A stretch of DNA of 36,434 nucleotides from a virus. The notes below the pieces were generated by a model. That model was not told the DNA's origin, did not search any database, and saw nothing but the letters and a program-made list of their open reading frames with translations. Position 1 is the first letter of the stretch. Every line of letters begins with the position of its first letter. The DNA lies in the UHGV virus genome UHGV-0123062; one strand, written 5' to 3'. Made by a program: the position numbers and the translations under genes. Below are positions 1,043-35,752 of this stretch, piece after piece.

Positions 1043-1111
1043 GATTAGCCCCTCCAACGGATAAATTAACTAAACACTCCTTGCGATATGTAATTCGCTC
1101 AATGTGTAGAG

Positions 1112-4349: not shown

Positions 4350-4372
4350 GGTTACTGGGCAAAGGGGGCGCA

Positions 4373-5818: not shown

Positions 5819-5824
5819 TTAAAC

Positions 5825-5869
5825 CCGGCCAGTGAAAATCGCTGGCCGGAGCAGTATCAGGATTTTTTT
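5825..5869 (+). terminator. Hairpin CCGGCCAG-N9-CTGGCCGG followed at a distance by a T7 run
   Basis: Seen directly downstream of the SPFH gene; the T-run is about 14 nt from the stem, so not a textbook intrinsic terminator. Confidence 0.4.
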
Positions 5870-5885
5870 AGTATGCCGTTCTCAC

Positions 5886-6120
5886 AAAAAAACCGCTTGC
5901 CATGCCGCAATCAGTCAGGTTACATTTTCGCTGCACCTCATAAAACGGGTGCCGGGTTTCGCAGCCTGCTGACAACCAAAGCGCACAACCGCGCCAGCGG
6001 TTTTTTTGTGCGTACTGTATTGCCACGTTTTTTTCGCGTCAGAATTATGGCGGGGCGTACGGGGCCGACTTCGGTCGGGCCGGGTTCTTTGGTTGCCGGT
6101 ACTGCGAACCCCGTACGTCT
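5886..6120 (+). ncRNA. Structured non-coding region; candidate small RNA or regulatory element
   Basis: No credible ORF; 11-bp inverted repeat AAAAAAACCGC (5886..5896) / GCGGTTTTTTT (5997..6007); terminator-like ACCGC-gcca-GCGGT plus U7 at 5988..6007; GCCGAC-TTCG-GTCGG hairpin enclosed by a 9-bp long-range stem CGTACGGGG (6056..6064) / CCCCGTACG (6110..6118). Confidence 0.3.
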
Positions 6121-6186
6121 CGCCACCCACAGTTTCGCAGCTCTGGATGGTGAGTTTTCAAAACTTACAACCAAAGAGGCCACACC

Positions 6187-6417
6187 ATGGCAAACCGCAA
6201 ACAGCACCGCGCTATCGCGGAGCGTCGTCACATCCAGACTGAAATCAACCGCAGACTTTCCCGCGCATTCCGCGTCGCTAAAATCATGCACATCAATATG
6301 CTGCATGAGCGTAGCTGCGAACTTTCAAACCTCTACTCATCCGCTGTTTTCAGCTATCTGGCGGATGATCTGCGCGAGCTTCAACAGCTCATCCAGCAGC
6401 AAAACAAACTCCATTAA
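6187..6417 (+). CDS. Hypothetical small basic protein upstream of A
   Basis: 76-aa ORF with AGAGG RBS. Confidence 0.5.
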   Translation: MANRKQHRAIAERRHIQTEINRRLSRAFRVAKIMHINMLHERSCELSNLYSSAVFSYLADDLRELQQLIQQQNKLH

Positions 6418-6489
6418 TTCCTGTTCCGGGCCTTTCCTGCACCTTGCGGCGGGAGGCCTTCGTACATCTGTAACAAGAGGATTGCCGCA

Positions 6490-6855
6490 ATGATTCTCGC
6501 CAACGACTTTCTTGAATACCTGCTCAACACAGAGCGTGATCTTGCCGTTCGCGTGCGTGAACGTTATGACATGTACCTGAAATCCCTGCCTGTACCGCAG
6601 CTCGCTGACGGAAAGATTGTTATTGATGGTCGCTACATGATTGACAGCCACGAGGGAAATTACAGGCTTTACCGCATTGAAGGTGGCACTCCGTCCGTTA
6701 TTGGCATTTACCAGCGCCCATCCTCTGCAATCGTCGATGTGATTGCCGACAGCATCCGCATCACACATCGCCATGCCGACACAGAAGACACCGTGCTGGA
6801 AATTCAGCGGCTGGCTGCCGTTTGCCGTGACACCCTGAACGGTATGACGCAGTAA
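6490..6855 (+). CDS. Hypothetical protein immediately upstream of A
   Basis: 121-aa ORF with AGAGGA RBS; tightly packed before A. Confidence 0.55.
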   Translation: MILANDFLEYLLNTERDLAVRVRERYDMYLKSLPVPQLADGKIVIDGRYMIDSHEGNYRLYRIEGGTPSVIGIYQRPSSAIVDVIADSIRITHRHADTEDTVLEIQRLAAVCRDTLNGMTQ

Positions 6856-6861
6856 ATCAGT

Positions 6862-9760: not shown

Positions 9761-10720
9761 ATGAAAATTTGTATCGACGACGGCTCCACCAACATCAAGC
9801 TGGCATGGACTGAGAACGGCGAACGCCGCAACGCCATCAGCCCGAACAGCTTCAAGTCGGAATGGTCTGCGCCGTTCGGTGGCACGCAGCCCGCGAACTA
9901 CATGCTTGATGGCGTGCGCTATGGTTTTGATCCGGTCAGCGATCGCTTTGTCCAGACGACCGACACGCAATACCAGTACAGCGATGTGAATGTAATTGCC
10001 ATTCATCACGCGCTGGTCAAATCAGGCATCACACCACAGGAAGTGGATGTGGTTGTCACCCTGCCACTGAGCGAGTATTTCGACACAAACGCACAGCCGG
10101 ACATGGCCAACATCAACCGCAAAAAAGCGAACGTTATGCGCCCGGTGGAGTACCAGAACGGCGAAGCATTCACTATCCGTAACGTGCGGGTTATGCCTGA
10201 ATCCATTCCGGCTGGCTTTAAGGCACTGGCTGACATGAGTCCGTTTGAATCCCTGCTGATTGTGGATTTAGGCGGAACCACGCTGGATGTGGCAAAGGTT
10301 CAGGGACAACTGGCAGGTATCAGCCAGGTGTTTTGCGATCCACACGTAGGCGTTTCCCTGATGTCCGATGCCGTACTGTCGGTGATGGCCACTAACGGTA
10401 TGCGTACCAGTCACCACATCGCCAATACCATTATCGAACATCGCCATGATGAAGCCTGGCTGCGCCAGCACATCCACAATGACGCGCATTACGCCAGCCT
10501 GATGGCGGTTATTCGTGAAAAGGAAGAAACACTGAAACAACGCGTGATCCGCGCGCTGGCGGGTTTTTCGGGTTACGGGCGGGTGATGATTGTCGGTGGC
10601 GGGGCAGAAATTGTGGCACCCGCTATCCGCGAAGCCTGCGGAGTTAATGCGACTTTCATCGCGGACGGGGTGCCACAGTTTGCTCTGGTTAATGGGCTGT
10701 ACGCAATGGACAAGGAGTAA
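9761..10720 (+). CDS. parM: ParM/StbA-family actin-like partition ATPase
   Basis: N-terminal phosphate-1 motif (ICIDDGSTNIKLAW), ISPNSFK, YSDVNVIAIHHAL, VMPESIPAG, LIVDLGGTTLD and IVGGGAE match my recollection of plasmid R1 ParM along the whole length; AAGGA RBS. Confidence 0.85.
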   Translation: MKICIDDGSTNIKLAWTENGERRNAISPNSFKSEWSAPFGGTQPANYMLDGVRYGFDPVSDRFVQTTDTQYQYSDVNVIAIHHALVKSGITPQEVDVVVTLPLSEYFDTNAQPDMANINRKKANVMRPVEYQNGEAFTIRNVRVMPESIPAGFKALADMSPFESLLIVDLGGTTLDVAKVQGQLAGISQVFCDPHVGVSLMSDAVLSVMATNGMRTSHHIANTIIEHRHDEAWLRQHIHNDAHYASLMAVIREKEETLKQRVIRALAGFSGYGRVMIVGGGAEIVAPAIREACGVNATFIADGVPQFALVNGLYAMDKE

Positions 10721-11099: not shown

Positions 11100-11744
11100 A
11101 TGCAACACATTGACAGAGAAAAAGCGCAGCGACTGATTGAGCGGATGGAAGCGCTGGCGAAAGAAGAAAATGTCAACATCCAAAAAATAGCTGAATGTGG
11201 CCAGATAGTTCTTCGTCGTGAAAAAGACCTCAAACAACTGATGTCTGGCGAAACCAGCAAAACATGGACTTCAGGCGAGAAGACGGTTTATTGCAGCTTC
11301 TGCAATAAATCCCAGTACGAAGTCACAAAGGTGATTGCCGGACCGTCTGTTTACATCTGCAATGAGTGCGTGGATTTGTGCAATGAAATTATCAGGAAAG
11401 AAGTGACAGACAAAAAGGAAAAAAAACGCATGAACAGAAAACAGAAACAAGAGTTGAAATACTTCTTACGTAAAGAAATTGCCAGGCTTGAAGATGCAGA
11501 GTCACAATCATCAGAAATTCCGTTCGGAATGGATATCAACGACGCCCGTATGCTCCAGGCATACCGCATAGCTCAGGCTGCACTACAGGCAAAACCGTCA
11601 GATGGACTGGTTAGAGCAGTACATTTCTATGAACAGGTAAAGCGTGAGAATCCGCCAGTCGAAACTGGAGTATGGAAAGACGCTATTGACTGGGTGACCA
11701 AAGAGGCTTGCCAAGCTGTAGACATTGGCATCAAAGGAGAGTGA
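11100..11744 (+). CDS. ClpX zinc-binding-domain (ZBD) mimic protein
   Basis: Residues ~64-100 ([39 protein letters not shown]) closely match the C4 zinc-ribbon of the ClpX N-terminal domain as I recall it from E. coli ClpX; no AAA+ ATPase module follows; flanking regions are unrelated to ClpX. Confidence 0.75.
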
Positions 11745-20134: not shown

Positions 20135-20276
20135 CCCACCCACATGGGGAAACCTCGGAATATGGGGCGACCGCCTTCTGGATGCACTGGAAACCTGTAA
20201 CGCGGATAAACGGGCCATTGCTGAACTGGATAAGAGAATAGCCGAACTGACACACCAGACGGGAGTAACACAATGA
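19995..20276 (+). CDS. lysC: o-spanin lipoprotein (Rz1 / LysC-like), embedded in +1 frame of the i-spanin gene
   Basis: Lipobox LLTGCAG, Pro-rich body; overlaps lysB out of frame; the listed ORF begins at GTG 19965. Confidence 0.6.
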   Translation: MNAPTLCLTLVLLTGCAGTQNAPGPAPSVRLIPQTLTMPVTPPPFPDPPTWGNLGIWGDRLLDALETCNADKRAIAELDKRIAELTHQTGVTQ

Positions 20277-22153
20277 CCAGTAAGAACTTTGCACTGATTA
20301 CAGCCATGACACAGGCTGAACTGACTCAAAAGGTGAATGAACATCTTGCGAAAGGGTGGCATCTTCAGGGGGAGACGCGGGTTGCCTACGAACCCGGCAC
20401 CCCGTGGTATCTAATGCAGGCAATGGTGGCCGATGGCACTACAGACATCTCACCTGATTCCCCCCAGCACGGCAGCGTGCCGGAGTGGTATTACGTGGTG
20501 GTACTTGCTGGTCAATCCAATGCCATGTCATATGGTGAGGGAATGCCGCTGCCGGATTCTTACGATGCGCCCCACCCACGCATTAAGCAACTGGCCCGTC
20601 GCAACACAGTGACTCCCGGTGGTAAAGCATGCGCATTTAACGACATCATTCCGGCAGACCACTGCCTGCATGATGTTCAGGATATGAGCGCACTGAATCA
20701 TCCGAAGGCAGACCTGAGCAAAGGGCAGTACGGCTGTGTCGGCCAGGGCTTACATATTGCCAAAAAACTGCTTCCGTATATCCCGAATAACGCGGGGATC
20801 CTGCTGGTACCATGCTGTCGTGGTGGTTCGGCATTCACCCAGGGCGCGGAGGGGACATTCAGTGCGGACACGGGGGCCAGCCAGGATTCGGCACGCTGGG
20901 GTGTGGGTAAACCGTTATATCAGGACCTGATCGCACGCACCAAAGCGGCATTACAGAAGAACCCGAAAAATGTGTTGCTGGCGGTGTGCTGGATGCAGGG
21001 CGAATTTGACATGAGCGCTGCCACCTACGCACAGCAACCGGACCTGTTCACGGCCATGCTGAAGCAGTTCCGTACTGACCTTTCCGGATTTAACGCGCAG
21101 TGCCATGGCGGCAGTGCTGCAGTTGTACCGTGGATTTGTGGCGACACGACGTATTACTGGAAAAACACATACGGCACACAGTATGACTCCGTCTACGGCG
21201 CGTACAAAAACAGGGAGAGCGACAACGTTTTCTTTGTGCCGTTCATGACCGACGGTAACGGCAACAACACGCCCACCAACTTACCGGCAGAAGACCCGGA
21301 TATTGCTGATGCAGGTTATTACGGCGCGCAATCCCGTAGTAATGGTAATTGGGTATCATCAAACCGCCCGACACATTTCAGTTCATGGGCGCGCAGGAGC
21401 ATTATTCCGGATCGTATGGCAACCGCTATTCTGAACGCAGCCGGGCGCACCTCAGCCTTCATCAGTGGTAAGGCACCGGAAATCAAACCCTCGCCCGGCG
21501 GCGACACTCCATCGGGGCCGTCTGATGGTGACACATCCGTTCATACAGTCTCCCTGCTGCCGACAGCCGGAGAGGCTGCTGCGCAGGGCTGGACCATCAC
21601 CGGCGGCAGTGTTGCGCTGGAAGATGGTGTGTTTAAGGTTACCAAGCAGAGCAATAAAACCTGGTCCCTGATGCATCCGGTGGATGACGCAGTCTCCCTG
21701 CTGACACGGGGTGGCAGACTGAGCTGTAAGTTTCGACTGTCAGGCGCACTGACCAACAACCAGTTCGGTCTGGGAATTTATCTGTATACCGATGTAGCGT
21801 TACCTGACGTCGTGGCGATGACCGGGACTGGTAACCCGTTCCTGATGTCGTTCTTCACCCAGACCACAGGCGGCAAACTGAATCTGATGCATCACAAGAA
21901 AGCCGGAAACACAAAGTTGGGCGAGTTCGGGAATTACAGTAACGACTGGCAGACGCTGGAGCTGGTGTTCACCGCCGGCAGTGCCACGGTTACTCCGAAA
22001 CTGAATGGAGTGGCTGGCCCGGCATTCCAGGTCATAAAAGACAGTCTGACACTGGGGCTGAATGCGCTGACGTTAACTGATATCACTAAAAATGCCGCGT
22101 ACGGCGTCGATATCGGCAGCCTGGTGCTGGAAATCAATAATCCCGCAGCATAA
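20273..22153 (+). CDS. NanS-p-like SGNH/SASA esterase with N-terminal DUF1737-like region and C-terminal beta-sandwich-like domain
   Basis: 626 aa; GQSNAMS catalytic-serine motif as in sialate O-acetylesterases; Pro/Gly-rich linker (PEIKPSPGGDTPSGPSDGD); inserted between lysis genes and R. Confidence 0.7.
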   Translation: MTSKNFALITAMTQAELTQKVNEHLAKGWHLQGETRVAYEPGTPWYLMQAMVADGTTDISPDSPQHGSVPEWYYVVVLAGQSNAMSYGEGMPLPDSYDAPHPRIKQLARRNTVTPGGKACAFNDIIPADHCLHDVQDMSALNHPKADLSKGQYGCVGQGLHIAKKLLPYIPNNAGILLVPCCRGGSAFTQGAEGTFSADTGASQDSARWGVGKPLYQDLIARTKAALQKNPKNVLLAVCWMQGEFDMSAATYAQQPDLFTAMLKQFRTDLSGFNAQCHGGSAAVVPWICGDTTYYWKNTYGTQYDSVYGAYKNRESDNVFFVPFMTDGNGNNTPTNLPAEDPDIADAGYYGAQSRSNGNWVSSNRPTHFSSWARRSIIPDRMATAILNAAGRTSAFISGKAPEIKPSPGGDTPSGPSDGDTSVHTVSLLPTAGEAAAQGWTITGGSVALEDGVFKVTKQSNKTWSLMHPVDDAVSLLTRGGRLSCKFRLSGALTNNQFGLGIYLYTDVALPDVVAMTGTGNPFLMSFFTQTTGGKLNLMHHKKAGNTKLGEFGNYSNDWQTLELVFTAGSATVTPKLNGVAGPAFQVIKDSLTLGLNALTLTDITKNAAYGVDIGSLVLEINNPAA

Positions 22154-25097: not shown

Positions 25098-25698
25098 TTC
25101 GTTGTTACCCCCATCAGCCAGCAATTTCATGCGTTGTGCCGAAGCCGTCGGAACACGCATTACAGACATTCCGGTAGACCTCAACACGTTGTGGTCGCCG
25201 GACACCTGCCCGGTGCATCTGCTGCCTTATCTCGCCTGGGCGTTTTCCGTTGACCGCTGGGATCGCAACTGGCCGGAAGAGACAAAGCGACAGGTGATTC
25301 GTGATGCATGGCTGATACACCGACACAAAGGGACCATCAGCGCACTGCGAAGAGCCGTGGAGCCTCTCGGCTACCTGATTGAAGTAAAGGAGTGGTGGCA
25401 ACTCAATGAGGAGCCTGGGACATTTCGCATTGTTGTCGGAGTACTTGATCAGGGCATCACCGATGAAATGCATCAGGAACTTGAACGCCTTATTGCGGAT
25501 GCAAAACCAGTAAGTCGCCATCTGACAGGGCTGGCGATCAGTCTGAGTGTGAACGGAAAGATTTTCGTTGGTACGGGATGCTATCACGGCGATGCCCTGA
25601 CGGTTTACCCCTACACCCCGGAGTCCATTATTGTCGAAGGGGATTATTTCCCTGCCCCGGCCATTCATTTAATTGATAATCTGAGAGTAAACGCATGA
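25090..25698 (+). CDS. I: Baseplate protein (P2 I-like)
   Basis: ATG 25090 overlapping the J 3' end. Confidence 0.85.
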   Translation: MSNSLLPPSASNFMRCAEAVGTRITDIPVDLNTLWSPDTCPVHLLPYLAWAFSVDRWDRNWPEETKRQVIRDAWLIHRHKGTISALRRAVEPLGYLIEVKEWWQLNEEPGTFRIVVGVLDQGITDEMHQELERLIADAKPVSRHLTGLAISLSVNGKIFVGTGCYHGDALTVYPYTPESIIVEGDYFPAPAIHLIDNLRVNA

Positions 25699-27122
25699 CA
25701 ATGAAATACTACGCCATTCTGACTAATCAGGGCGCGGCACGACTGGCTAACGCGACGATGCTCGGCAGTAAGCTGAATCTGACGCAAATGGCCGTTGGTG
25801 ATGCAAATGGTGTGTTACCAACACCAAACCCTGCACAAACAAAACTGATTAACCAGAAACGCATTGCACCGCTGAATCTTCTGAGTGTTGACCCTAACAA
25901 TCAGAGCCAGATTATTGCGGAGCAAATCATCCCTGAAGACGAGGGAGGATTCTGGATCCGTGAGATTGGTCTTTATGATGATAAAGGTGTACTCATTGCG
26001 GTGGCAAACTGCCCGGAAACGTACAAACCGCAGTTGCAGGAAGGCAGTGGACGCACCCAGACTATCCGCATGATTCTGGTTGTCACGAACACCAAAGCCA
26101 TCACGCTGAAAATCGACCCGTCTGTGGTTCTGGCAACCCGCAAATATGTGGATGATAAAATCTCAAAGCACGAGCAGTCACGACGTCACCCGGACGCCTC
26201 GCTGACCGCAAAAGGCTTTGTTCAACTTAGCAGCACCACCAACAGCACCTCTGAAACGCTGGCCGCAACACCGAAAGCGGTTAAGGCTGCATATGACCTG
26301 GCTAACGGGAAATATACCGCTCAGGATGCGACTACGGCACGAAAAGGCCTTGTTCAACTCAGTAGCGCCACCAACAGCACCTCTGAAACGCTGGCCGCAA
26401 CACCGAAAGCGGTTAAGGCTGCATATGACCTGGCTAACGGGAAACAACCGGCAGATGCCACGCTCACTGCTCTGGCAGGACTTGCCACTGCAGCAGATCG
26501 GTTGCCTTATTTTACCGGAGCAGACCGCGCAGCGCTGGCAACCCTTACAGCTATTGGTCGCGCTATTATCGCTAAGGGCAGTATAAAAGATGTCCTCAAT
26601 TACCTTGGTTTAGGAGAAGGCTCGGCGCTACCCGTTGGTGTGCCTGTTCCGTGGCCCACCGCCACACCGCCAGCAGGCTGGTTAAAGTGCGACGGGCGCG
26701 CCTTTACAAAAGAACAATATCCTGTTCTGGCCAGAGCCTACCCGACCCTCCGTCTTCCCGATTTACGCGGTGAGTTTATCCGTGGATGGGACGACGGGCG
26801 CAAAGTTGATACAGGACGTAAGTTGCTGTCCGCACAAGGGGCAACGCTGTTAAGAACAGCAATGCTGGATTATTATAACCAGGACACTACGGGAACCTCG
26901 GGGATAGTCGGCATGGGATTCAACAATGAAGATTCCATTACAGACCTTCGTGAGGGCAGCTTTAAAATGCCGGACGGGACAACATTCAGCGATCCTGTCA
27001 TAGCAATGTCAGACAATGGTATGCAGGCTACTATTCTGACCTCTATCAGAAGCGGGTATGCGAAGGGTATCACTGTCAGACCCCGTAGCATTGCACTTAA
27101 TTACATTGTGAGGGCAGTTTAA
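25695..27122 (+). CDS. H: Tail fibre protein (P2 H-like), C-terminal part inside the invertible segment
   Basis: 475 aa; N-terminal constant region, two 44-aa tandem repeats, C-terminal receptor-binding part whose upstream end is duplicated in inverted orientation at ~27995..28221. Confidence 0.9.
   Translation: MTMKYYAILTNQGAARLANATMLGSKLNLTQMAVGDANGVLPTPNPAQTKLINQKRIAPLNLLSVDPNNQSQIIAEQIIPEDEGGFWIREIGLYDDKGVLIAVANCPETYKPQLQEGSGRTQTIRMILVVTNTKAITLKIDPSVVLATRKYVDDKISKHEQSRRHPDASLTAKGFVQLSSTTNSTSETLAATPKAVKAAYDLANGKYTAQDATTARKGLVQLSSATNSTSETLAATPKAVKAAYDLANGKQPADATLTALAGLATAADRLPYFTGADRAALATLTAIGRAIIAKGSIKDVLNYLGLGEGSALPVGVPVPWPTATPPAGWLKCDGRAFTKEQYPVLARAYPTLRLPDLRGEFIRGWDDGRKVDTGRKLLSAQGATLLRTAMLDYYNQDTTGTSGIVGMGFNNEDSITDLREGSFKMPDGTTFSDPVIAMSDNGMQATILTSIRSGYAKGITVRPRSIALNYIVRAV
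26208..26471 (+). repeat. Tandem direct repeat, 2 x 132 bp, inside tail fibre gene H
   Basis: Near-identical 132-bp units encoding KG(F/L)VQLSS(T/A)TNSTSETLAATPKAVKAAYDLANGK; period measured between the ctgaaacgct landmarks (26251 and 26383). Confidence 0.9.
26605..26831 (+). repeat. Left inverted repeat of the invertible segment (~227 bp)
   Basis: Encodes LGLGEGSALPVGVPVPWPTATPPAGWLKCDGR...GRKLLS, which reappears in the minus-strand cassette. Confidence 0.8.
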
Positions 27123-27736
27123 TGAGTAACACTGCAGTTCTGGATGAAAACGGTATCGCCACTGTAGCGGGCGATATCACTGTATATCACTATGACGAGG
27201 AAACCCGGGAATACACCTCATCCTCTGTGGAGTATCTCGCCCTTGGGGTGGGTACTCCGGCACATTCGTGCGCCGATGCACCGCCGGAGGCAATTTCGGG
27301 TTACGTGGTTTGCCGGACTGCCACGCTGAACGGGTGGGAGCATGTGCCTGATCACCGCGGCGAGACGGTATACAGCACGGAGAACGGTAACCCCGTTCTG
27401 ATTACCCAACCGGGTGATTACCCGGCGGACACCACCACAAAACAGCCAGCCACGCCATGGGATACCTGGAACGGTGAGGCGTGGGTAACCGATACTGAAC
27501 GGCAGCGAACCGCAGAACTGGAGGTTGCCAGACAGCAACGCCAGCAACGGGTGAAACAGGCGATGGCGTCCGTCGATCTTATCAACCTCAAACTGCGTGC
27601 TGGTCGCAGTCTGACACCAGAAGAAACGGCAAAACTGAACGCCGTGCTGGATTATATCGACGAGCTGAACGCACTGGATATCAGCACGGCACCTGAAATC
27701 AGCTGGCCGGAAGCGCCACTGGCACTTGCCAGTTGA
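27122..27736 (+). CDS. G: Tail fibre assembly chaperone (P2 G-like)
   Basis: 204 aa; ATG overlaps the H stop; C-terminal segment ending ...WPEAPLALAS parallels the P2 G C-terminus as recalled. Confidence 0.8.
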   Translation: MSNTAVLDENGIATVAGDITVYHYDEETREYTSSSVEYLALGVGTPAHSCADAPPEAISGYVVCRTATLNGWEHVPDHRGETVYSTENGNPVLITQPGDYPADTTTKQPATPWDTWNGEAWVTDTERQRTAELEVARQQRQQRVKQAMASVDLINLKLRAGRSLTPEETAKLNAVLDYIDELNALDISTAPEISWPEAPLALAS

Positions 27737-27742
27737 ACGGTA

Positions 27743-28221
27743 TCACGCCGCCCTCACGATATAGTTAAACGCGATATTGCGGGGGCGGGTTATGTTAAAG
27801 AATGCTCCGTTTAATTCGGCTTTTGCGCGACTGTTTGTTCCACCCAGCATTGCGTACCACAAATAATCGCTACGGTAATTCCCCGCAAACACCTTATCGC
27901 CGCCATAGTCAATATTATTTCCGTTACTCATGTACGAGATATCAAGCGCAGAATCGTTATCGTCATGACCGCCGACCAGTGTACCTTTCTGCCATGAAAG
28001 CAACTTACGCCCCTCGTCAATCTTGCGCCCGTCGTCCCATCCACGGATAAACTCACCGCGTAAATCGGGAAGACGGAGGGTCGGGTAGACTCTGGCCAGA
28101 ACAGGATATTGTTCTTTTGTAAAGGTGCGCCCGTCGCACTTTAACCAGCCTGCTGGCGGTGTGGCAGTGGGCCACGGAACAGGTACACCAACGGGCAGCG
28201 CCGAGCCTTCCCCCAAACCAA
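27743..28221 (-). CDS. Alternative tail-fibre C-terminal cassette (promoterless, would fuse to constant H on inversion)
   Basis: Minus-strand reading frame shares the 66-aa junction segment with H then diverges to a different C-terminus ending NYIVRAA; the listed ORF 27743..28273 has no credible independent start. Confidence 0.65.
27995..28221 (-). repeat. Right inverted repeat of the invertible segment (~227 bp)
   Basis: Reverse complement encodes the same ~66-aa segment with a few substitutions. Confidence 0.8.
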
Positions 28222-28287
28222 CGTTTTCGTTTTTATCCCTACCTATACCAACTCTGTATTTTTCACGAAACAAAGAGGATGTTTTTT

Positions 28288-28887
28288 ATGCAAATTGGCT
28301 ATATTCGTGTGTCAACAAACGACCAGAACACGGATTTACAACGCAATGCACTGAACTGCGCAGGATGTGAACTGATTTTTGAAGATAAAATCAGCGGAAC
28401 GAAATCAACCAGACCGGGATTGAAAAAACTGCTCAGAACGCTATCAGAAGGAGATACGCTGGTTGTCTGGAAGCTGGACAGACTGGGCAGAAGTATGAAA
28501 CACCTGATCACGCTTATTGAGGAATTGCGGGAAAAAGGTGTTAATTTCCGTAGTCTGACGGACAGCATTGACACGTCAACACCCATGGGGCGTTTCTTTT
28601 TTCACGTCATGGGGGCTTTAGCCGAAATGGAACGTGAATTAATTGTAGAACGTACACTGGCCGGGCTGGCAGCAGCACGCGCACAAGGACGCATTGGCGG
28701 ACGTCGCCCGAAGTTGACAAAAGAACAACACGAGCAAATAGCGAGGCTGATTAAAAACGGTCATGACAGGAAACAACTGGCGATCATTTACGACATCGGC
28801 ATATCGACGATTTATCGTTATCACCCTGTAGGCGATATACAGGCTGAAGAAACAACCAGGCAGACTCAGGAAAATGAAAACCGCTAA
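28288..28887 (+). CDS. Serine DNA invertase (Hin/Gin/Cin/Pin family)
   Basis: N-terminus MQIGYIRVSTNDQNTDLQRNAL with catalytic Ser motif; C-terminal HTH; GAGG RBS; start trimmed to ATG 28288. Confidence 0.9.
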   Translation: MQIGYIRVSTNDQNTDLQRNALNCAGCELIFEDKISGTKSTRPGLKKLLRTLSEGDTLVVWKLDRLGRSMKHLITLIEELREKGVNFRSLTDSIDTSTPMGRFFFHVMGALAEMERELIVERTLAGLAAARAQGRIGGRRPKLTKEQHEQIARLIKNGHDRKQLAIIYDIGISTIYRYHPVGDIQAEETTRQTQENENR

Positions 28888-28906
28888 TCTGACCATTAGC
28901 GGTTTT
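28877..28906. terminator. Bidirectional terminator hairpin between the convergent invertase and U genes
   Basis: Perfect 12-bp stem AAAACCGCTAAT / ATTAGCGGTTTT with 6-nt loop, A/T tracts on both sides; overlaps the invertase stop codon. Confidence 0.7.
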
Positions 28907-28913
28907 GCGTTAA

Positions 28914-29402
28914 TCAAAACAGCCCTTTAACGGAGCTGGCCGCGCTGTTGAGGGATGATGTGACCTTATCTTTGAAGCCGGACAGCATATCACTGAACGA
29001 TGAGGATTGCAGGCGCTCCCGCAAATCCTCATCACAGCGTTCAAGAGTCAGTGAAAATTCTATCTTTTTCGCCTTACCGTAGCGATCAAACTCGGAACGG
29101 GTCGTATTCGTTTCAGTCAGTACATACATGCCGTAAATCTGCCCGACACCATCAATCAGAGGCCAGGGGCGTCCTGTATATGCCTGCGTGGTCAGCAACG
29201 AAAGCGACACTTCGCCACCTGTAATTTCAGGATAAAGCACGCCAGAAAGCACGATGCGATCATCACCTGCACCGATATACTGCCAGCTTGCTGAGCGGTT
29301 TACGCGCTCATTTTTCACATGCCGCCAGCTTTTGTTTTGCTGTAACTGCTGATGCGGCAACGTGCGCAGCTCAAAAACAAACATGCCGTAGATCATCATC
29401 AT
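28914..29402 (-). CDS. U: Tail protein (P2 U-like)
   Basis: Start taken at ATG 29402 (GAGGAG RBS 8 nt upstream on the minus strand); the listed ORF starts at 29408. Confidence 0.8.
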   Translation of the reverse strand: MMMIYGMFVFELRTLPHQQLQQNKSWRHVKNERVNRSASWQYIGAGDDRIVLSGVLYPEITGGEVSLSLLTTQAYTGRPWPLIDGVGQIYGMYVLTETNTTRSEFDRYGKAKKIEFSLTLERCDEDLRERLQSSSFSDMLSGFKDKVTSSLNSAASSVKGLF

Positions 29403-29414
29403 GGCCATGACTCC

Positions 29415-32228
29415 TCAATCTTTATCGTAAAAACTGCCACGCCCGGCACGGGCGCGCCGTTCCATTTCTGCCCTGACCATTTCACCGACCAGTTTCGCCA
29501 GTTCGCGGGGATTCTGCGTAACAACGTTATGCAGATGAACATGAATTTCACCACCAAATCCGGAGGCAACAGGCTCCCGGTTACGGGAAGTTACAGGAAC
29601 TGACGCCACTGGAGATCGTATGGCCTCCGCCACCGGGCGGGAGCTGGCCGCAACAACAGGGACCAGCGCCGGAGGCAGCGGAGCCGGGACCACGGGTGTG
29701 ATATTAATTGCGGGGGGCTTACTGACCTGCGCAATCTTCCGCTCCTGCCACTCCCCACGAACAGCAAGTGCGCGGGGCAGGTTCTTAAAGACAATATCGC
29801 CGGGGCCAATGCGTTTTTTCGTCTCATCAACCAGCTTACCTGTGTTATCAGCAATTTTGCTGAGTCTGCGCAGCGTACCGGTATTGCTGTCTGTGAGCGG
29901 TTTATTGTCTTTGGGGTTATCACCTCCGGTGCCATTGCCATTTTCCACAGGCTTCGGCGGATTGATTTTCGCCAGGTCCCCCTGAAGCAAGGCAACCTTG
30001 TCCTGAAGAATGGCCGCACGCTGTGCGTCTTCGATTTTCTTGCGCGCCCTTTCCGCTTCATCCGGAAGGACGCCAAGTTTTTCAAGTATCCACGCCAGCG
30101 TATCCAGCAGCATTTTTGCAGGTGTCAGAACAAGCTGTAACGCACCGCCAAGAACGCTACCGAATATCTCGCCAGCACTGGTACATTTATCCAGCGTTTC
30201 CTTGCTGGACTCCATCGGTGACAGCAGCGATTTAAACCAGTTAAACACCTGGCTGATCCCGCTCCCGATTGCGTCAAAAACAGGACCAAACCGTTCAAAG
30301 GTTTCGCGCAACGGGGTCAGCCTTTCCATAATCCCGTTGAACACCCCGGCATAAAACGCCTTAATGGGTTCCCAGTATTTCCAGATGAGAACCGCCGCAG
30401 CCACAAACGCAGCAGCAATCAATCCAACCGGACTGAACAGCGCCCCGATAGCGCCTCCCAGCAAAGAAACAGAACCCGTCAGCATTCCCCACAGCGCAGG
30501 CAACACCCGGACGACATTCATTGACCGGGTAAGAATGTCAAAACCAAGACGCAGGGTGGCCAGCTTTCCGTAAAGCACCCCAATAACCAGCGACAACGAG
30601 CCAATCGTTGCAGTCATTGCCAGCAACGCACCGCCTGCTATCAGTAGCTGGCGCGTCAGTACCGGATGGGCCTGCGCCAGCGAGGTGATTTTTTCAAGCA
30701 CCCGCGTGAGCCACTGCGTGACAGAACGCAGCGGACCGTCAACCAGATCACTGATGCGAATACGAAGACCTTCCCATGCGCTGTCGAGATTTTTCAGGTC
30801 CCCATCAAGATTATCGGCCATTACTTTTGCAACGCGATCGGCCTCTCCCCTTGCCCCCTGCAATTCTCTGGTCAGTTTTTGCAGCTCTCCTGAACCAGCC
30901 GCCGCAACAAGCGTCTGTAAACCAACGAACGCCTCTTCTCCGGCGATGTCCTTGAAGAAGGAGACCTGGTCCACCTGTCCGTATTTTTGTGTCGCCTTAT
31001 AGAGATCAAGCAGCACATCCTCCATCGGGCGCATTTTGCCTCTGGCGTCAGCAACTGACACCCCCAGCTCTTTCAGTGCATCAGCCGCAGCTTTTGGCGG
31101 TGATGCAAGGCGGGACAGACTTGCGCGCATGGCCGTACCAGCATCGCTTCCACGAAGACCATTATTGGCAAGCATCCCGGCCATGGCTGCCGCTTCTTCA
31201 AGACTGATACCAAGTTTTGCGGCAACCGGACCGGTATACTTCATGGTTTCGCCCAGCGCGCGTAAATCAGTATTGGTCCGGGTGAATGCCGCTGTCAGCG
31301 TATCGCCAACCCGGTCCATTTGATCGGCTGTCAGGTTGAACTGTGTGAGGATATTGGAGCCTATATCCGCCGTCTCGCCGAGTTCGACGCCACCTGCCAG
31401 CGCCATATTAAGAACACCGGGCAATGCGGCCTGAATGGCCTGCGGAGTAAAACCAGCCATTGCCAGAAAGCTCTGCCCACTGGCGGCATCACTCGCAGTA
31501 AACTGTGTTTCAGAACCAAGTTTTAACGCCTGCTCACGCAGCGCCTTAAACTGCGGGCTGTTTTTGTCGATTCGCGTCAGTGCCTGAACGCGGGACATCT
31601 CTTTGCCGAACCCGATCGCAGGCTGCAAAAAACGCCCGGCAGCATAGCCGCCAGCCGCTGCAGCACCAATTGCCAGCGCACCACCTGTTTTCAGTTTTCC
31701 CGCGGTTTCCTGCGCGCGCGAATACCGCTCACGCGCCCGCGTTACACGCGCAAGCGCCTGCCGTTCGCGTTCAAGCTGGTTGTTGTACTGTTCAGTGCGT
31801 CTGATGGCCTGCTGGATTGTGTTATCGCTGCCTGTCAGGGAAATGCCGTGGCGTTTCAGCTCTCCGCCAAGTTCCCGCATTTTCTGAATTTCCCGTGTGC
31901 GCGATTCATTCAGGCGTTCAAGCCGGGTGCTTAACTGCTGCATCAGCTTTTGTTGTTTTTCGCTGAGCACTGTACCCGTGCGTTGTAACTGATTAAGGGC
32001 GTTAAGCTGGCGTCGTGCTTTCACGATACCCGCATCCGCTTTACTGACAGCGTCGCGGGCGCGCTCAAATGAACGCGCCTGACGCTCGAGATTTTTGATC
32101 GCCCCCTGCGTTCGCTGGATGGAGTCACCAAACTGCCCCATCAGGCGGCGGGCGTTTTCGGCAGGCCGGGTCAGCCTGTCAACGGCGCTGAAAGCGACCC
32201 GGATATCAAGAGTCTTCATTGTCTGCAT
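29415..32228 (-). CDS. T: Tail tape-measure protein (P2 T-like)
   Basis: 937 aa; coiled-coil N-terminal third, hydrophobic Gly/Ala-rich central segments; between E/E' and U. Confidence 0.85.
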   Translation of the reverse strand: MQTMKTLDIRVAFSAVDRLTRPAENARRLMGQFGDSIQRTQGAIKNLERQARSFERARDAVSKADAGIVKARRQLNALNQLQRTGTVLSEKQQKLMQQLSTRLERLNESRTREIQKMRELGGELKRHGISLTGSDNTIQQAIRRTEQYNNQLERERQALARVTRARERYSRAQETAGKLKTGGALAIGAAAAGGYAAGRFLQPAIGFGKEMSRVQALTRIDKNSPQFKALREQALKLGSETQFTASDAASGQSFLAMAGFTPQAIQAALPGVLNMALAGGVELGETADIGSNILTQFNLTADQMDRVGDTLTAAFTRTNTDLRALGETMKYTGPVAAKLGISLEEAAAMAGMLANNGLRGSDAGTAMRASLSRLASPPKAAADALKELGVSVADARGKMRPMEDVLLDLYKATQKYGQVDQVSFFKDIAGEEAFVGLQTLVAAAGSGELQKLTRELQGARGEADRVAKVMADNLDGDLKNLDSAWEGLRIRISDLVDGPLRSVTQWLTRVLEKITSLAQAHPVLTRQLLIAGGALLAMTATIGSLSLVIGVLYGKLATLRLGFDILTRSMNVVRVLPALWGMLTGSVSLLGGAIGALFSPVGLIAAAFVAAAVLIWKYWEPIKAFYAGVFNGIMERLTPLRETFERFGPVFDAIGSGISQVFNWFKSLLSPMESSKETLDKCTSAGEIFGSVLGGALQLVLTPAKMLLDTLAWILEKLGVLPDEAERARKKIEDAQRAAILQDKVALLQGDLAKINPPKPVENGNGTGGDNPKDNKPLTDSNTGTLRRLSKIADNTGKLVDETKKRIGPGDIVFKNLPRALAVRGEWQERKIAQVSKPPAINITPVVPAPLPPALVPVVAASSRPVAEAIRSPVASVPVTSRNREPVASGFGGEIHVHLHNVVTQNPRELAKLVGEMVRAEMERRARAGRGSFYDKD

Positions 32229-32442
32229 TCCCGCTGCGAAGTGCCGCCCGCTCGCGCCAGCTAACCACTTCGCCGGGCGTCATCATGAAGATTTCGGCGG
32301 GCGACCAGTTAAAAATGGCGGCAATATCTGCCACAAAGTCTTCTATGTGCTCAAAGCACACAACCGTGATCAGGCTTCCGTCGCCTGTTCGTTCTTCCCG
32401 CCAGAGTCCGCACCGCTCAAAAAATTTACGGCAACCGCACAT
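32206..32442 (-). CDS. E' extension ORF, expressed as E+E' by -1 programmed ribosomal frameshift
   Basis: -1 frame ORF overlapping the E 3' end and the T 5' end; slippery T TTT TTG on the minus strand at 32418..32424. Confidence 0.6.
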   Translation of the reverse strand: MCGCRKFFERCGLWREERTGDGSLITVVCFEHIEDFVADIAAIFNWSPAEIFMMTPGEVVSWRERAALRSGNADNEDS

Positions 32443-32735
32443 AACTGAATAAAGTCACGGGATGCCATTTTTTTGATCGTCACTTCATCCAGTCGCGGTG
32501 ATGTCACGCGTGACAGCAGCGTAAACATGGATTCCGCTTTCAGATTCAGCACATCAGACAGCGACAAATCTCGCAGAGATCCAGCCTGCTCAATAGCCCC
32601 GGTGATCTCCACATACGTGATTTTTTCGCCGCCTCGCTCAATTGGTTGGGTAAGTTTTACGCCACGCTCACTGGTTTCTTTCACAGTGTCAGTAACTACC
32701 GTGTTTTCGGTATCGATGTTTTTCGTCTCTTTCAT
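32370..32735 (-). CDS. E: Tail assembly chaperone (P2 E-like), zero frame
   Basis: GGAG RBS; contains the slippery heptamer near its 3' end. Confidence 0.75.
   Translation of the reverse strand: MKETKNIDTENTVVTDTVKETSERGVKLTQPIERGGEKITYVEITGAIEQAGSLRDLSLSDVLNLKAESMFTLLSRVTSPRLDEVTIKKMASRDFIQLCAVAVNFLSGADSGGKNEQATEA
32418..32424 (-). promoter_or_regulatory. Programmed -1 frameshift slippery heptamer TTTTTTG (E to E+E')
   Basis: Seen directly; the E frame reads AAT TTT TTG AGC and the -1 frame continues into the E' ORF. Confidence 0.65.
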
Positions 32736-32789
32736 CAGGAAACTCCTTTCAGTCAGAGGCGACGCACTGCGCCGCCTGCATATTACTTA

Positions 32790-33302
32790 TCAGCCAAGCC
32801 CGAGCGCGGAACGGATGCGATCGGGCACAATGTCCTTGCCGTCCTTCCGGTAAATGAAGTTCAGCAGGTCAATCTCCCACAACGGGCGATCGTTAACACT
32901 CAGCTTGTAGTAGGTGTTTTTAATGGCGTAAGTGTGTGATGTGGCTTCGCCCTGTTTGGCTTCCCCCATATCAATTTCCGTCACACGTCCGCGCATTTCG
33001 ACTTCATACAGGTCGCTTTCTGCATCGGTGTAGTATTCACCCGCAAAACGCAGCAGCGTGCCGTCAATCGTGCCGCCATACTTAAGGAACAGCTCACGAA
33101 CTGCGCCCCCCATGACAAAGCTCGCATCAAGCGCGGAGTCGTCCAGACCGAGATCAATACTTACCGCACCCATCATGCCACCACCCCGGTAGCTGTCGGT
33201 TTTGCGCGTCAGCTTAGGCAGAGTGACGGACGTCACCTTACCCACTTCGTTTTCACCATCCACAAACAGCGTAAAAAAGCGAAGATGTTTTGGTACAGCC
33301 AT
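32790..33302 (-). CDS. FII: Tail tube protein (P2 FII-like)
   Basis: 170 aa; ATGA overlap with the FI stop. Confidence 0.85.
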   Translation of the reverse strand: MAVPKHLRFFTLFVDGENEVGKVTSVTLPKLTRKTDSYRGGGMMGAVSIDLGLDDSALDASFVMGGAVRELFLKYGGTIDGTLLRFAGEYYTDAESDLYEVEMRGRVTEIDMGEAKQGEATSHTYAIKNTYYKLSVNDRPLWEIDLLNFIYRKDGKDIVPDRIRSALGLG

Positions 33303-34486
33303 CAGGCACCTCCCAGCACCGCAAATGCGGGACCAAAGAATTCATCAGTAAACGACTGGTAAAGCTCCATGTCTTCCAGCGGAGGAACGGGCGTATATTT
33401 GTAGCGAATACGCACACGCCCCTGACGTAAACCCGTGGTGCTGTTATCCACCACGTCATACCAGCACTCCGCACCAATCAGTTTCCCGACAGTAACCAGC
33501 GAATCCAGTTTTGCTCTGATGGCGCTGATAACATCCTTCACGTTCGCAGGTGTCAGTGGACTGTCGATGGTTTCAAACTGCGCTTCCGCAATTGAATCAG
33601 CCAGCACCTGTGCGGTTCGGGTATACACCTCAAAGATGTAGGCGTTCGTTTCCGGTGTGCGGTTGCCCCAGAAGCGGAACCCGTTACGACGAATAATGGT
33701 CGTGATTTCTTTGTTGTTGAGGCTGTTGGCATCACTGTCTTCGGCCTGTAACGACCAGAACACATGCCTCGACATCCCCAGCACATTTTTAACCGGAACG
33801 TTGGACAGCGATTTGTGCCAGCCCTGCTCATGGTCAATGTACGCACGAAGGCCGCACGCATAAGCAGGCGCGGGGAACGTTTCGTTTTTGCCACTTTTCG
33901 GGTTGTAGGCGATGAAGTCAGGCCATAAGAGCATCACCTCACGTTCGTTGAATTTCTGGCGGTAGGTAATCGCCTCAGCCATCGTGTTACAACCATGACA
34001 TGTGGCATACACAAACGCGCGCAGTTTACCCGCAATCACGCACAGGGATTTTGTCACCGCCTCCGTGTCCAGCTCCGGCGCGGCCAGAATACGCGGACGG
34101 TATCCGATGCTTTCATCCTGCTCTGCAACAAGCAGCGCATACATCCCCGTATAGCTGCCGTCAGATTCAGAACCACCGATAACCAGTTGATCCTGCGTCT
34201 TTCCGTTTTCTTCTTTGTGTTCAGCCACGCGAACGACGATCACCTTTGTGCTCACCTGGTCTGCGATGGCCTTAAGCGCACGATAAAGCGTCCCCGTTGT
34301 CCCGCATTTTCCCAGCACGTCATTGACGCGGGTCAGCAGTGTGGGCTTGTTCAGCGGGAACAGCTTCGCGTCCGCATCATCCGCCGTTGCCACGATACCG
34401 ATAACGCTGGAATCAACATCATTAATCGCTGTTACCAGGTCGGTACTTTCCGTAACACGGGCACCATGAAAACGAGTTTCACTCAT
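33302..34486 (-). CDS. FI: Contractile tail sheath protein (P2 FI-like)
   Basis: 394 aa; first gene of the leftward tail operon. Confidence 0.9.
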   Translation of the reverse strand: MSETRFHGARVTESTDLVTAINDVDSSVIGIVATADDADAKLFPLNKPTLLTRVNDVLGKCGTTGTLYRALKAIADQVSTKVIVVRVAEHKEENGKTQDQLVIGGSESDGSYTGMYALLVAEQDESIGYRPRILAAPELDTEAVTKSLCVIAGKLRAFVYATCHGCNTMAEAITYRQKFNEREVMLLWPDFIAYNPKSGKNETFPAPAYACGLRAYIDHEQGWHKSLSNVPVKNVLGMSRHVFWSLQAEDSDANSLNNKEITTIIRRNGFRFWGNRTPETNAYIFEVYTRTAQVLADSIAEAQFETIDSPLTPANVKDVISAIRAKLDSLVTVGKLIGAECWYDVVDNSTTGLRQGRVRIRYKYTPVPPLEDMELYQSFTDEFFGPAFAVLGGA

Positions 34487-34642
34487 AGCTTCAGCCCCTT
34501 GTATCCGTTAAATGATTCGGCAACAATCATCACCCACCACGCGCGTAATCTCACCCCTGCGCCGTTCTCCCGCCACGGCGACAACAAAAAGCAGTAACCC
34601 ACTCCGCACGCACATGCGACCATGCCGCACAGGGAGGGAAAG
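34487..34642. promoter_or_regulatory. Divergent intergenic region between FI (leftward) and D (rightward); presumed late promoters
   Basis: Inferred from gene arrangement only; no canonical TGT-N12-ACA element found. Confidence 0.3.
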
Positions 34643-35752
34643 ATGACCAACACCACCATGCAATTGCTCAGTCAGAGCACAGACCCCGTGAAAATGCCGG
34701 ATTTTGATATTCTCGCGGAGGGGGAAACGCTGTCCGGCGTGGCAGAGCGCCTGATGAGTCTGTCACTGACCGACAACCGGGGATTTGAAGCGGACCAGCT
34801 CACCATCACGCTGGATGATGCGGATGGTCAGTTGCAGCTACCGCCACGGGGCGCGCGTCTGACGGTTCTCATTGGCTGGAAAGGCGAACCGCTGACAGAA
34901 AAAGGCACTTACATTGTTGATGAAATCGCTCACGAAGGACCGCCGGACAGGCTGACGGTTTCAGCCAGAAGCGCAGATTTTCGGGATGAATTTAACGTTA
35001 AACGTGAGGTGTCCTGGCATGATGTGACCGTTGAGCGCGTGGTATCCGCCATCGCTCATCGGTACGGTCTGAAACCGCAAATCAGCGAAATGCTGATGGA
35101 TATCGAAATCGACCACGCCGACCAGACCGAAGAAAGCGATATGTCCTTCCTTACGCGCATGGCGGAAATGCTGGGCGCAATCACCACGGTAAAAAGCGGT
35201 AATCTGTTATTCATCATGCCCGGCGGTGGCGTGAACGCACAGGGCCAGCCGTTGCCATCGTTTGCCATCACACGCAGCAGCGGCGATCGCCATCAGTTCC
35301 GCATTGCTGACCGCGAAGCGTATACGGGGGTACGCGCTTACTGGCTTGATCTTAATTACGGGAAAAAGAAAAAAGTCAGCGTGAAACGCCGTAAACCGCC
35401 AAAACCCAAAAAGGAGAAAAGCAGCAGCCGTGAAGGTGATTATATGGAAGGCGCGGAAGGCAATGTGTTTGTGTTACGCAAGACTTATCAGAACGAGCAG
35501 GCAGCAAGACGCGCAGCGGCGGCAAAGTGGCAGCAACTACAACGCGGAGCCGCATCATTCTCCATCACGCTGGCGCGTGGACGTGCAGAACTCTACCCCG
35601 AAATGCATGGCACGGTAACAGGATTTAAAAGCGAGATTGATAATCAGGACTGGATCATTGCAAAAGCCGAGCACACCATTGATAACAGCGGTTTTACCAC
35701 GCAGCTTGAGCTTGAGGCAAAAATCCCGGAATGGATAGCGGAAACAGAGTGA
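34643..35752 (+). CDS. D: Tail protein D (P2 D-like)
   Basis: Start taken at ATG 34643 (GGGAGGG RBS); listed ORF begins at 34622. Confidence 0.85.
   Translation: MTNTTMQLLSQSTDPVKMPDFDILAEGETLSGVAERLMSLSLTDNRGFEADQLTITLDDADGQLQLPPRGARLTVLIGWKGEPLTEKGTYIVDEIAHEGPPDRLTVSARSADFRDEFNVKREVSWHDVTVERVVSAIAHRYGLKPQISEMLMDIEIDHADQTEESDMSFLTRMAEMLGAITTVKSGNLLFIMPGGGVNAQGQPLPSFAITRSSGDRHQFRIADREAYTGVRAYWLDLNYGKKKKVSVKRRKPPKPKKEKSSSREGDYMEGAEGNVFVLRKTYQNEQAARRAAAAKWQQLQRGAASFSITLARGRAELYPEMHGTVTGFKSEIDNQDWIIAKAEHTIDNSGFTTQLELEAKIPEWIAETE

Follow-up and report, generated by a model that had tools for sequence, protein, structure and literature searches.

A probable Pin/Cin-type inversion switch with two tail-fibre tips and a single chaperone gene in a P88-like Escherichia coli prophage

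Invertible fibre tips are a textbook host-range hedge of temperate phages and tailocins. In the Min system of the P1-like plasmid p15B, a serine invertase of the family considered here uses six sites and shuffles fibre 3' ends into many isomers, compared with two sites in our window, i.e., the whole stretch of 36,434 nucleotides of viral DNA that was analyzed (UHGV virus genome UHGV-0123062). The G segment of phage Mu is served by Gin, a member of the same invertase family, whose gene starts just outside the right site, as in the window. Mu G and phage P88, the latter having its entire phage backbone in common with the window, differ from it in that their sites are of the gix type (TC/GA core), they have two chaperones and their tips belong to another class; their classically described short repeats of 34 bp contrast with the long repeats found here. 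The C segment of P1 (invertase Cin) is flanked by inverted repeats of 636 nt, and the annotated cix crossover maps to the outer ends of these, which is the geometry of the window. The core of cix is TT and its inner half-site is GGTTTAAGAGAA; the enhancer of P1 is situated within the 5' part of cin. Unlike the window, P1 encodes U and U', one chaperone per tip, its tips belong to the Mu S class (…INGTWYN), and cin ends at cixL, whereas the invertase gene of the window starts next to the site. The P segment of e14 in E. coli K-12 has pix sites with a TT core, and its invertase Pin is ~83% identical to that of the window (tblastn). StfE of e14 represents the tip class of the window (…ETRPRNIAFNYIVRAA). 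However, e14 possesses two different tip classes, StfE and StfP, with the chaperones TfaE and TfaP, whereas the window has one class with two tips and one chaperone.

A P2-like prophage locus of EPEC E2348/69 contains 215-bp repeats starting with ACCTTGGTTTGGGGGAAGGCTC, and whole-genome sequencing together with PCR showed that it exists in four variants (Goldberg et al., 2014; PMC4272514). This “shufflon” (NC_011601.1, 1891695-1893703) shows the same P88-like gene order as the window. Both share the crossover site, a repeat of ~215-229 nt, a single tfa of the TfaE class and gp37-like cassettes ending NYIVRA; in addition, the EPEC U protein is identical to U of L001, a close relative of the window. 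In EPEC there are three sites, three cassettes (X, Y and Z) and four states, whereas the window has two sites, two cassettes and two states. Moreover, the variable regions of the cassettes belong to types unrelated to one another, and identity between the Tfa proteins is only 59%. The invertases are 98.5% identical, so the novelty implied by the earlier note is not supported, since flipping of the EPEC locus was already demonstrated by experiment in 2014 (PMC4272514). The window is a two-cassette member of a family in which three- or four-cassette relatives carry the same single tfa. With two sites it falls short of the at least three that define multiple inversion, while L002, L003, L006, L007 and L015 have three or four. 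The Enterobacter temperate phage FRφ was described with a Gin-type recombinase and three cassettes, by which fibre C-termini are swapped, and its locked isoforms differ in infectivity (PMC12330518). Its isoform ratio of 50:25:25 (PMC12330518) fits the four-state model derived for the three-cassette relatives of the window; FRφ is likened to the window by the description in that paper, which does not mention its chaperone content.

The element in the window is P88-like (Xuanwuvirus) and belongs to the P2 family. Its gene order is that of P88 (NC_026014): an inverted FI-FII-E-T-U block faces H-G-invertase in convergent orientation, and gpD is encoded on the opposite strand. Because this block is inverted relative to P2, the module is located between G and U and not in the G-FI accessory slot to which it had previously been assigned. 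The characterized P88-like phages contain the Mu-type two-chaperone module, and no isolated virion with a module of the one-tfa type was found in the phage collection.

Table 1. Features of the inversion module and its surroundings (positions in the window)
Feature	Position	Strand	Basis and remarks
Constant part of H, up to crossover core	25695..26604	+	ORF; Pfam Phage_tail_fib and fibre repeats
Left 26-bp crossover site, pix/cix-like	26593..26618	+	TCCTCAATTACC TT GGTTTAGGAGAA; TT core 26605-26606; read from sequence
Left arm of inverted repeat	26602..26830	+	Repeat search; codes for start of collar domain, cassette A
Cassette A, 171 aa, fused to H as found	26607..27122	+	Ends NYIVRAV; always the cassette preceding tfa
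tfa, tail-fibre assembly (chaperone), TfaE class	27122..27736	+	Caudo_TAP, E=5.5e-28
Cassette B, 158 aa, silent as found	27743..28219	-	Collar; ends NYIVRAA; stop reached at 27743
Right arm of inverted repeat	27996..28224	-	Repeat search; codes for start of collar domain, cassette B
Right 26-bp crossover site	28208..28233	-	Minus-strand reading AAAACGAAAACG TT GGTTTGGGGGAA; core 28221-28220
Serine DNA invertase, 199 aa	28288..28887	+	Resolvase (E=2e-51) and HTH_7
Putative Fis-dependent recombinational enhancer	28306..28377	+	+19 to +90 of invertase gene; position from annotated P1 cin enhancer
Hairpin, candidate bidirectional terminator	28877..28906		Between 3' ends of invertase gene and U

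A repeat search revealed a 229-nt inverted repeat, the arms of which are 93% complementary and spaced by 1165 nt (Table 1). It brackets a 1.6-kb segment adjoining the serine invertase gene, and in the 6.5-kb region no further inverted repeat longer than 29 nt was found. The repeat given in the earlier note as 26605-26831 and 27995-28221 is therefore real, with slightly shifted borders. The left arm is recognized as Collar by Pfam and is homologous to the collar of T4 gp37; the long repeat is simply the collar-domain coding sequence common to each cassette. At its outer ends lie the two 26-bp sites in inverted orientation, both imperfect palindromes. They fit the pattern of e14 pix, Mu gix and P1 cix taken from the reference records, and the right site has nearly the same sequence as e14 pixR. 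The outer half-site TCCTCAATTACC is fixed at the H-side position in every relative compared. The long repeats had been described as resembling P1 rather than short hix/gix sites. The geometry indeed matches that of P1, but the contrast with short sites is false, as 26-bp sites with a TT core are present at the outer ends of the repeat. A divergence of the repeats at the crossover cores, considered there as an objection, is not observed, the TT cores being identical at both sites.

Gene H (25695-27122, plus strand, 475 aa) contains the Pfam domains Phage_tail_fib, fibre repeat and Collar. An in silico flip at the two TT cores results in an in-frame H of 462 aa ending NYIVRAA, so that the C-terminus is replaced by the minus-strand cassette as the earlier note had predicted. 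Judging from sequence, cassettes A and B are small T4 gp37-like tips. Cassette B matches PDB 2xgf (T4 gp37 tip) with E=3.4e-15 over the collar. Its C-terminal …NIAFNYIVR-A aligns with …KNIAFNYIVRLA only in a low-scoring stretch with an i-Evalue of ~400, the support here coming mainly from direct sequence identity. The two cassettes have the same layout: they start with the collar sequence common to both (the repeat), vary in the middle and have the end RPRN-IA-NYIVRA in common. The StfE/gp37-type end is common to all cassettes of the one-tfa loci, and their Tfa is of the TfaE class. The variable middle of the tip presumably binds the receptor and therefore the switch, as a bet-hedging device, should change the host range. 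For the silent cassette, neither a promoter nor a ribosome-binding site was detected. A TTG-start ORF (27743-28273) was considered as a stand-alone gene but lacks a Shine-Dalgarno sequence; the PGAP start in relatives falls inside the crossover site, and the ORF is considered an ORF-calling artefact.

The recombinase can be assigned to the Hin/Gin family of serine invertases, in agreement with the earlier proposal. It aligns over its full length to Gin (PDB 4m6f, E=2.4e-91), and Ser9 is conserved in the motif YIRVSTNDQ. As a serine resolvase/invertase it is distinct from the tyrosine recombinase that acts on asymmetric sfx sites in Rci-type shufflons. The 5' part of its gene may function as a Fis-dependent enhancer. 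The respective stretch shows 78% identity to the P1 cin enhancer (76% to gin, 79% to pin), which coding constraint alone could explain. It contains G-N13-C motifs centred at +29 and +78, which are common with gin and pin and confounded by the same constraint. The hairpin at the 3' end of the gene has a folding energy of -16.9 kcal/mol on one strand and -15.6 kcal/mol on the other (z = -6 and -5, respectively).

The locus very probably functions as a site-specific inversion switch of the Pin/Cin type (Hin family), carried by a P88-like E. coli prophage of the P2 family. The invertase would pair the two crossover sites, cut at the TT cores and flip ~1,616 bp. In the as-found state H is joined to cassette A, followed by tfa; in the flipped state it is joined in frame to cassette B, with A and tfa reading backwards. 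Both forms exist in nature. With at least 80% coverage on one strand required, where the wrong orientation can reach only ~49-71%, the flipped form was detected in 267 complete E. coli genomes, and 249 were found to have the as-found form. Out of 5,426 complete E. coli genomes, ~500 thus possess the module in one orientation or the other, although the two counts may partly overlap. One flipped example in one piece, with 99.1% identity, is annotated as H(+), tfa(-), cassette(-) and invertase(+). Inversion in the source strain itself is probable, considering these near-identical relatives.

The relatives also reveal the position of the exchange. Inner half-sites and cassettes are permuted, while outer half-sites keep their position (window, L001-L003, L005, L006 and L013-L016). 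Polymorphic bases at 6 and 9 bp inward of the core invariably follow the cassette, and the base adjoining the core on the outside is tied to the position. Because of this, the natural recombinants place the exchange within 7 bp at the core (TTGGTTT) and not along the repeat. RecA-mediated homologous recombination between the 229-nt repeats, which would make the invertase irrelevant, is hardly credible as the source of the inversions: the repeats are long and similar enough for homologous recombination, but an exchange confined to 7 bp at the site centre argues against it, and in FRφ deletion of gin abolishes rearrangement (PMC12330518).

Intact invertase modules persist and still flip in degraded remnants adjoining aroA, yfaL and an Ail/Lom gene. 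This is consistent with the idea that the module also or mainly serves the bacterium, in that flipping produces fibre-fragment proteins which block the receptors of other phages. A precedent is StfE2 of e14, made by PinQ, which was reported to be such a receptor-blocking fibre fragment (PMC12529663). However, for the window this explanation is quite improbable. The prophage looks complete from integrase to gpD, H is full length with the cassettes fused to it, and the silent cassette has no detected start signals of its own.

The number of chaperone genes is the point at which the locus departs from the reference systems. It contains one Caudo_TAP gene versus two in each of the Mu G, P1 C and e14 P modules, where every tip has its chaperone. 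The window Tfa is 59% identical to e14 TfaE. The start of tfa overlaps the stop of H, with a GAGGG Shine-Dalgarno sequence immediately 5' of the ATG (read from sequence), and only 6 bp separate its stop from the stop of cassette B. Antisense ORFs within tfa (e.g., 27218-27547) were considered as a hidden second chaperone, but their composition is junk-like and they match no family. Because of the 6-bp gap and the lack of a credible ORF antisense to tfa, the segment is regarded as containing one chaperone gene. Always linked to cassette A, tfa is antisense whenever B is fused. Both the single gene and its antisense position after inversion had been pointed out before, and the latter state is found in real genomes, e.g., L005.

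It is therefore of interest how fibres ending in cassette B are assembled. We tentatively favour the view that the single TfaE-class chaperone serves all cassettes of the tip class and is still supplied after the flip through weak expression or in trans. Since all cassettes belong to the same T4 gp37-like tip class, a single chaperone could suffice for them. Less probably, B folds without a chaperone, which we regard as rather doubtful. In L099 and L100 a TfaE-class gene comes directly after the tip, which weakens the idea that B-like tips are an inherently chaperone-free class. Among isolated phages, only two records with B-like tips were found, both prophage-derived.

P2 gene G and Mu gene U are needed in fibre assembly. 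The flipped state could thus be a dead end, in which the H-B fibre misfolds without a co-transcribed chaperone (a fibre-ON/fibre-OFF switch), or cassette B could be a remnant of a larger module. The antisense position of tfa in the flipped state is in line with this, as is the co-oriented TfaE-class gene that follows B-like tips elsewhere and suggests a need for the chaperone. In addition, the hairpin would block the obvious read-through route, and an example from S. Typhi shows that cassettes of such modules can decay. Nevertheless, we consider a dead end unlikely. None of the 25 cassette copies in 10 E. coli loci is disrupted, although so low a divergence (0-3 differences per pair among cassettes A, B and C in the dN/dS comparison) does not suffice as proof of selection. 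In the diverged EPEC module, cassette Y has remained intact; according to a state enumeration by hand it is never co-oriented with tfa, and an identical copy of Y is present in S. Typhi. Furthermore, collar-type tips without their own chaperone recur in Rosenbergiella and Sodalis loci.

As to the route of supply under the favoured reading of a shared chaperone, a sigma-70 scan detected no site ahead of tfa, none within the repeat and none directed leftward from the invertase side. The P2-type late promoter motif TGT-N12-ACA has 5 matches in the window versus 9.6 expected, and the match at 28255-28272, with a poor leftward geometry, is taken as chance. The segment lies between two late operons that are directed towards it, the H operon and the inverted FI-U tail operon. 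If transcription from the right continued into the flipped segment, sense tfa RNA would result, and tfa would be transcribed in both orientations. The late operons on either side, the Shine-Dalgarno sequence of tfa itself and the occurrence of the one-tfa StfE-class module in P88-type convergent contexts (window, L001-L007) fit this scenario. It is improbable, however. A stable hairpin directly 3' of U, with a T-run on the minus strand, speaks against read-through, the transcript would need to traverse ~600 nt of the invertase gene in antisense, P88 has two chaperones despite the same convergent layout, and the same module also occurs in remnants without the tail operon.

As a kind of switch the locus is ordinary and well documented, and it brings no new principle; the sole unusual feature is that two tips share one chaperone gene, which is reversed by the flip. 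The module is very common in E. coli, where reference assemblies fix one arbitrary state, and natural recombinants map the crossover to base level without experiment. That one class-level chaperone gene, tied physically to one cassette, suffices for a multi-cassette switch even when antisense is a doubtful proposition at present. If true, either small gp37-like tips such as B would fold without a dedicated chaperone or the phage would supply Tfa independently of orientation, and each would be a design rule unlike the textbook one-chaperone-per-tip arrangement of Mu, P1 and e14. For the engineering of P2-type particles and tailocins, the one-chaperone layout raises the question of which gp37-like tips need co-expressed Tfa, and whether one Tfa per class may be enough.

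The repeat search revealed one inverted repeat, with arms of 229 nt that are 93% complementary, and no second one longer than 29 nt in the surrounding 6.5 kb. It flanks the fibre segment as the earlier note had claimed, and the gene layout proposed there, namely the tail-fibre gene H, a minus-strand cassette (cassette B) and a neighbouring serine invertase gene, was recovered by ORF and domain calls. The long repeat is the coding sequence common to the start of each cassette, the alternative fibre tips. As also proposed, the segment contains a single assembly (chaperone) gene, tfa; a second one has no room, since the stops of tfa and cassette B are just 6 bp apart. Both crossover sites have the undiverged core TT, which matches what inversion needs. 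The same site pattern was extracted from reference records, with a TT core for pix of e14 and cix of P1 and a TC/GA core for gix of Mu and for P88. An in-silico flip at the cores results in an in-frame H of 462 aa, whose C-terminus is swapped for that of the NYIVRAA cassette, as had been predicted. The repeats had been likened to those of P1 and set against short sites. The geometry is indeed that of P1, where repeats of 636 nt begin ~10 bp further out than the crossover points annotated for cix, but the opposition to short sites does not hold: here, as in P1, the long repeats carry short sites, of 26 bp, at their outer ends.

Features of the invertible module and the surrounding prophage
Feature	Coordinates	Strand	Remarks
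Integrase	50-1057		
Early-region accessory genes	9761-10720, 4988-5818, 11100-11744	+	
626-aa ORF	20273-22153	+	DUF1737, SASA carbohydrate-esterase domain, DUF6645; between lysis and tail genes
H	25695-27122	+	Fibre and collar domains
Tandem duplication in H	26210-26444	+	132 bp, 96% identical; encodes "phage tail fibre repeat"
Left crossover site (Hin-family, 26 bp)	26593-26618		TCCTCAATTACC TT GGTTTAGGAGAA; outer end of left repeat arm
Left repeat arm	26602-26830		
tfa	27122-27736	+	Caudo_TAP assembly gene
Cassette B	stop at 27743	-	Collar domain, C-terminus NYIVRAA
Right repeat arm	27996-28224		
Right crossover site (Hin-family, 26 bp)	28233-28208	-	AAAACGAAAACG TT GGTTTGGGGGAA; outer end of right arm
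TGT-N12-ACA dyad	28255-28272		Perfect, TGTATTTTTCACGAAACA; between right crossover site and invertase start codon
Serine invertase	28288-28887	+	
U, T, E/E', FII, FI	28914-34486	-	Opposite strand to H-tfa
gpD	34622-35752	+	

We searched 5,426 complete E. coli genomes for both versions of the segment, as found and flipped in silico, over the same coordinates. The flipped form was found in 267 and the as-found form in 249 of them (at least 80% coverage on one strand), and these counts reflect orientation because the wrong orientation reaches only ~49-71% coverage. In strain 300444 the flipped form is present in one piece with 99.1% identity, annotated as H(+), tfa(-), cassette(-) and invertase(+), which agrees with the claim that the chaperone gene becomes antisense after inversion. 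Its Tfa protein is the same as that of an unflipped relative. In the window and the related loci L001-L003, L005, L006 and L013-L016, the outer half-sites are constant by position, with TCCTCAATTACC beside the constant part of H, AAAACGAAAACG or GAGAGATAAACG on the invertase side and CGCATAAAAACG at internal junctions, and the inner half-sites are permuted among positions together with their cassettes. The base immediately outside the core depends on the position, and a polymorphism lying 6 bp within the core side moves with the cassette; therefore, the exchange maps to TTGGTTT. Such confinement is the signature of a serine invertase and not of homologous recombination along the repeat. In many draft genomes (L022, L023, L026-L028, L030, L035, L038, L040, L043, L046, L047, L050) the contig ends within ~70-200 bp upstream of the invertase gene, which suggests that short-read assemblies are routinely broken by mixed orientations or repeats of such modules.

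Flipping is already known: inversion had been shown for a closely related locus whose invertase is nearly identical. The "shufflon" in the P2-like prophage of EPEC E2348/69 has three 215-bp repeats, 92% alike, and four variants with three alternative C-termini; sequencing and PCR verified each of the four (Goldberg et al. 2014, PMC4272514). This locus (L007) shares the gene order and single tfa of the window; its invertase is 98.5% identical, its repeats start with ACCTTGGTTTGGGGGAAGGCTC and its U protein does not differ from that of L001, a close relative of the window. In Enterobacter phage FRφ, described in 2025, a Gin-driven switch of three cassettes gives isoforms of 50:25:25 in prophage and virion DNA; deletion of gin locked the state, and the test host was infected by only one isoform (PMC12330518). 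Enumeration of the arrangements of a three-cassette locus yields four states with three tips, one tip being shared by two states, which fits both the EPEC (PMC4272514) and the FRφ (PMC12330518) reports. Within this family the window represents the form with two sites and two cassettes, whereas its closest relatives carry three sites or more. It has the enzyme, sites, identical cores and both orientations of Hin/Gin/Cin/Pin systems, and a putative Fis enhancer is consistent with them. A related module of S. Typhi (L098; CP120395.1, locus coordinates 4367-7542) has six crossover sites; several of its cassettes bear frameshifts or stops, and one intact cassette matches cassette Y of EPEC exactly. 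The module has the look of a multi-cassette switch in decay. A 1268-bp contig labelled Moraxella osloensis (L018) carries a collar cassette and an invertase that are 92% and 86% identical, respectively, to the window collar query and the window invertase; its E. coli-like sequence makes contamination the probable source, not a Moraxella element.

The module is located in a complete-looking P2-family prophage, from integrase through gpD. The FI-FII-E-T-U block converges on H-tfa-invertase, so that two late operons meet at the module, and gpD is transcribed separately. This inverted, convergent layout is normal for P88 (Xuanwuvirus), unlike P2. In the characterised Xuanwuvirus phages P88, P88_4B11 and Citrobacter φSM the module is of the Mu type, with gix-type sites and a pair of chaperones; the window-type module is known from prophages and remnants only. 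E. coli AZ184, B36, 3347558 and CE10 (L013-L016) have the A-tfa / B (/ C) module as well, with another invertase of 190 aa, in degraded remnants beside aroA, yfaL, phnP or an Ail/Lom gene, where H is truncated and both orientations are still present. Among close relatives H ranges from 475 to 607 aa, which probably reflects the copy number of the tail-fibre repeat. The 626-aa ORF is likely a cargo gene, and its architecture is like that of the NanS-p sialate O-acetylesterases in Stx prophages. The accessory genes encode a ParM-type actin-like segregation protein (both domains, E=1e-82), an SPFH/Band 7 protein and a ClpX-type zinc-finger protein; a plasmid-style ParM gene is unusual within an integrated P2-family prophage.

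Three cassette types occur among the relatives (A, 171 aa; B, 158 aa; C, 168 aa), and the one that tfa follows is always A. All share the first ~72 residues, which are the repeat, and the end RPR[SN][IV]A[LF]NYIVRA[AV]. In the structure of T4 gp37 both ends belong to the collar. Cassette B matches the gp37 fibre tip (PDB 2xgf) over the collar domain (E=3e-15), gp37 ends in KNIAFNYIVRLA, and the cassettes appear to be built as gp37 is, a conserved start and end flanking a variable middle. StfE of e14 has the same C-terminal end, and TfaE of e14 shares 59% identity with the Tfa of the window. Mu, P1 and e14 have one chaperone per tip, a rule from which the window departs. In two-chaperone systems the two tips differ in class, and each pairs with a separate class of chaperone: StfE with TfaE and StfP with TfaP in e14 and EPEC locus 2, S with U and S' with U' in Mu and P88. 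In the one-chaperone family every tip is of the StfE class, and therefore one chaperone for all tips is plausible in specificity.

After the flip, tfa runs antisense to the late operon, and three-cassette relatives have one cassette (B; Y in EPEC) whose fusion never coincides with a sense orientation of tfa. B-class tips are normally TfaE clients, and the tfa product may be supplied anyway, which we give slightly less than an even chance. A stable hairpin between U and the invertase gene (-16.9 and -15.6 kcal/mol) argues against read-through into tfa from the convergent tail operon. A promoter scan found no sigma-70-like promoter upstream of tfa or leftward from the invertase side, and the P2 late-promoter motif is not enriched within the window; the TGT-N12-ACA dyad has poor geometry for a leftward late promoter and may belong to the promoter or operator of the invertase gene. 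That cassette B does not need the chaperone is rather unlikely. Comparison with other loci points both ways. Rosenbergiella (L034) and Sodalis (L049, B-like tip) have collar-type tips without their own chaperone, facing a cassette of a different class that has one. A TfaE-class gene directly follows the B-like tips of two P2-type tail clusters (L099, L100), and S. Typhi L098 has H fused to a B-like tip, its single tfa lying downstream in the same orientation. A defective B state is, by a small margin, the least probable reading. The one-chaperone layout, of which we found no discussion in the accessible literature, is real and widespread; it raises a question of modest weight and does not amount to a new mechanism.
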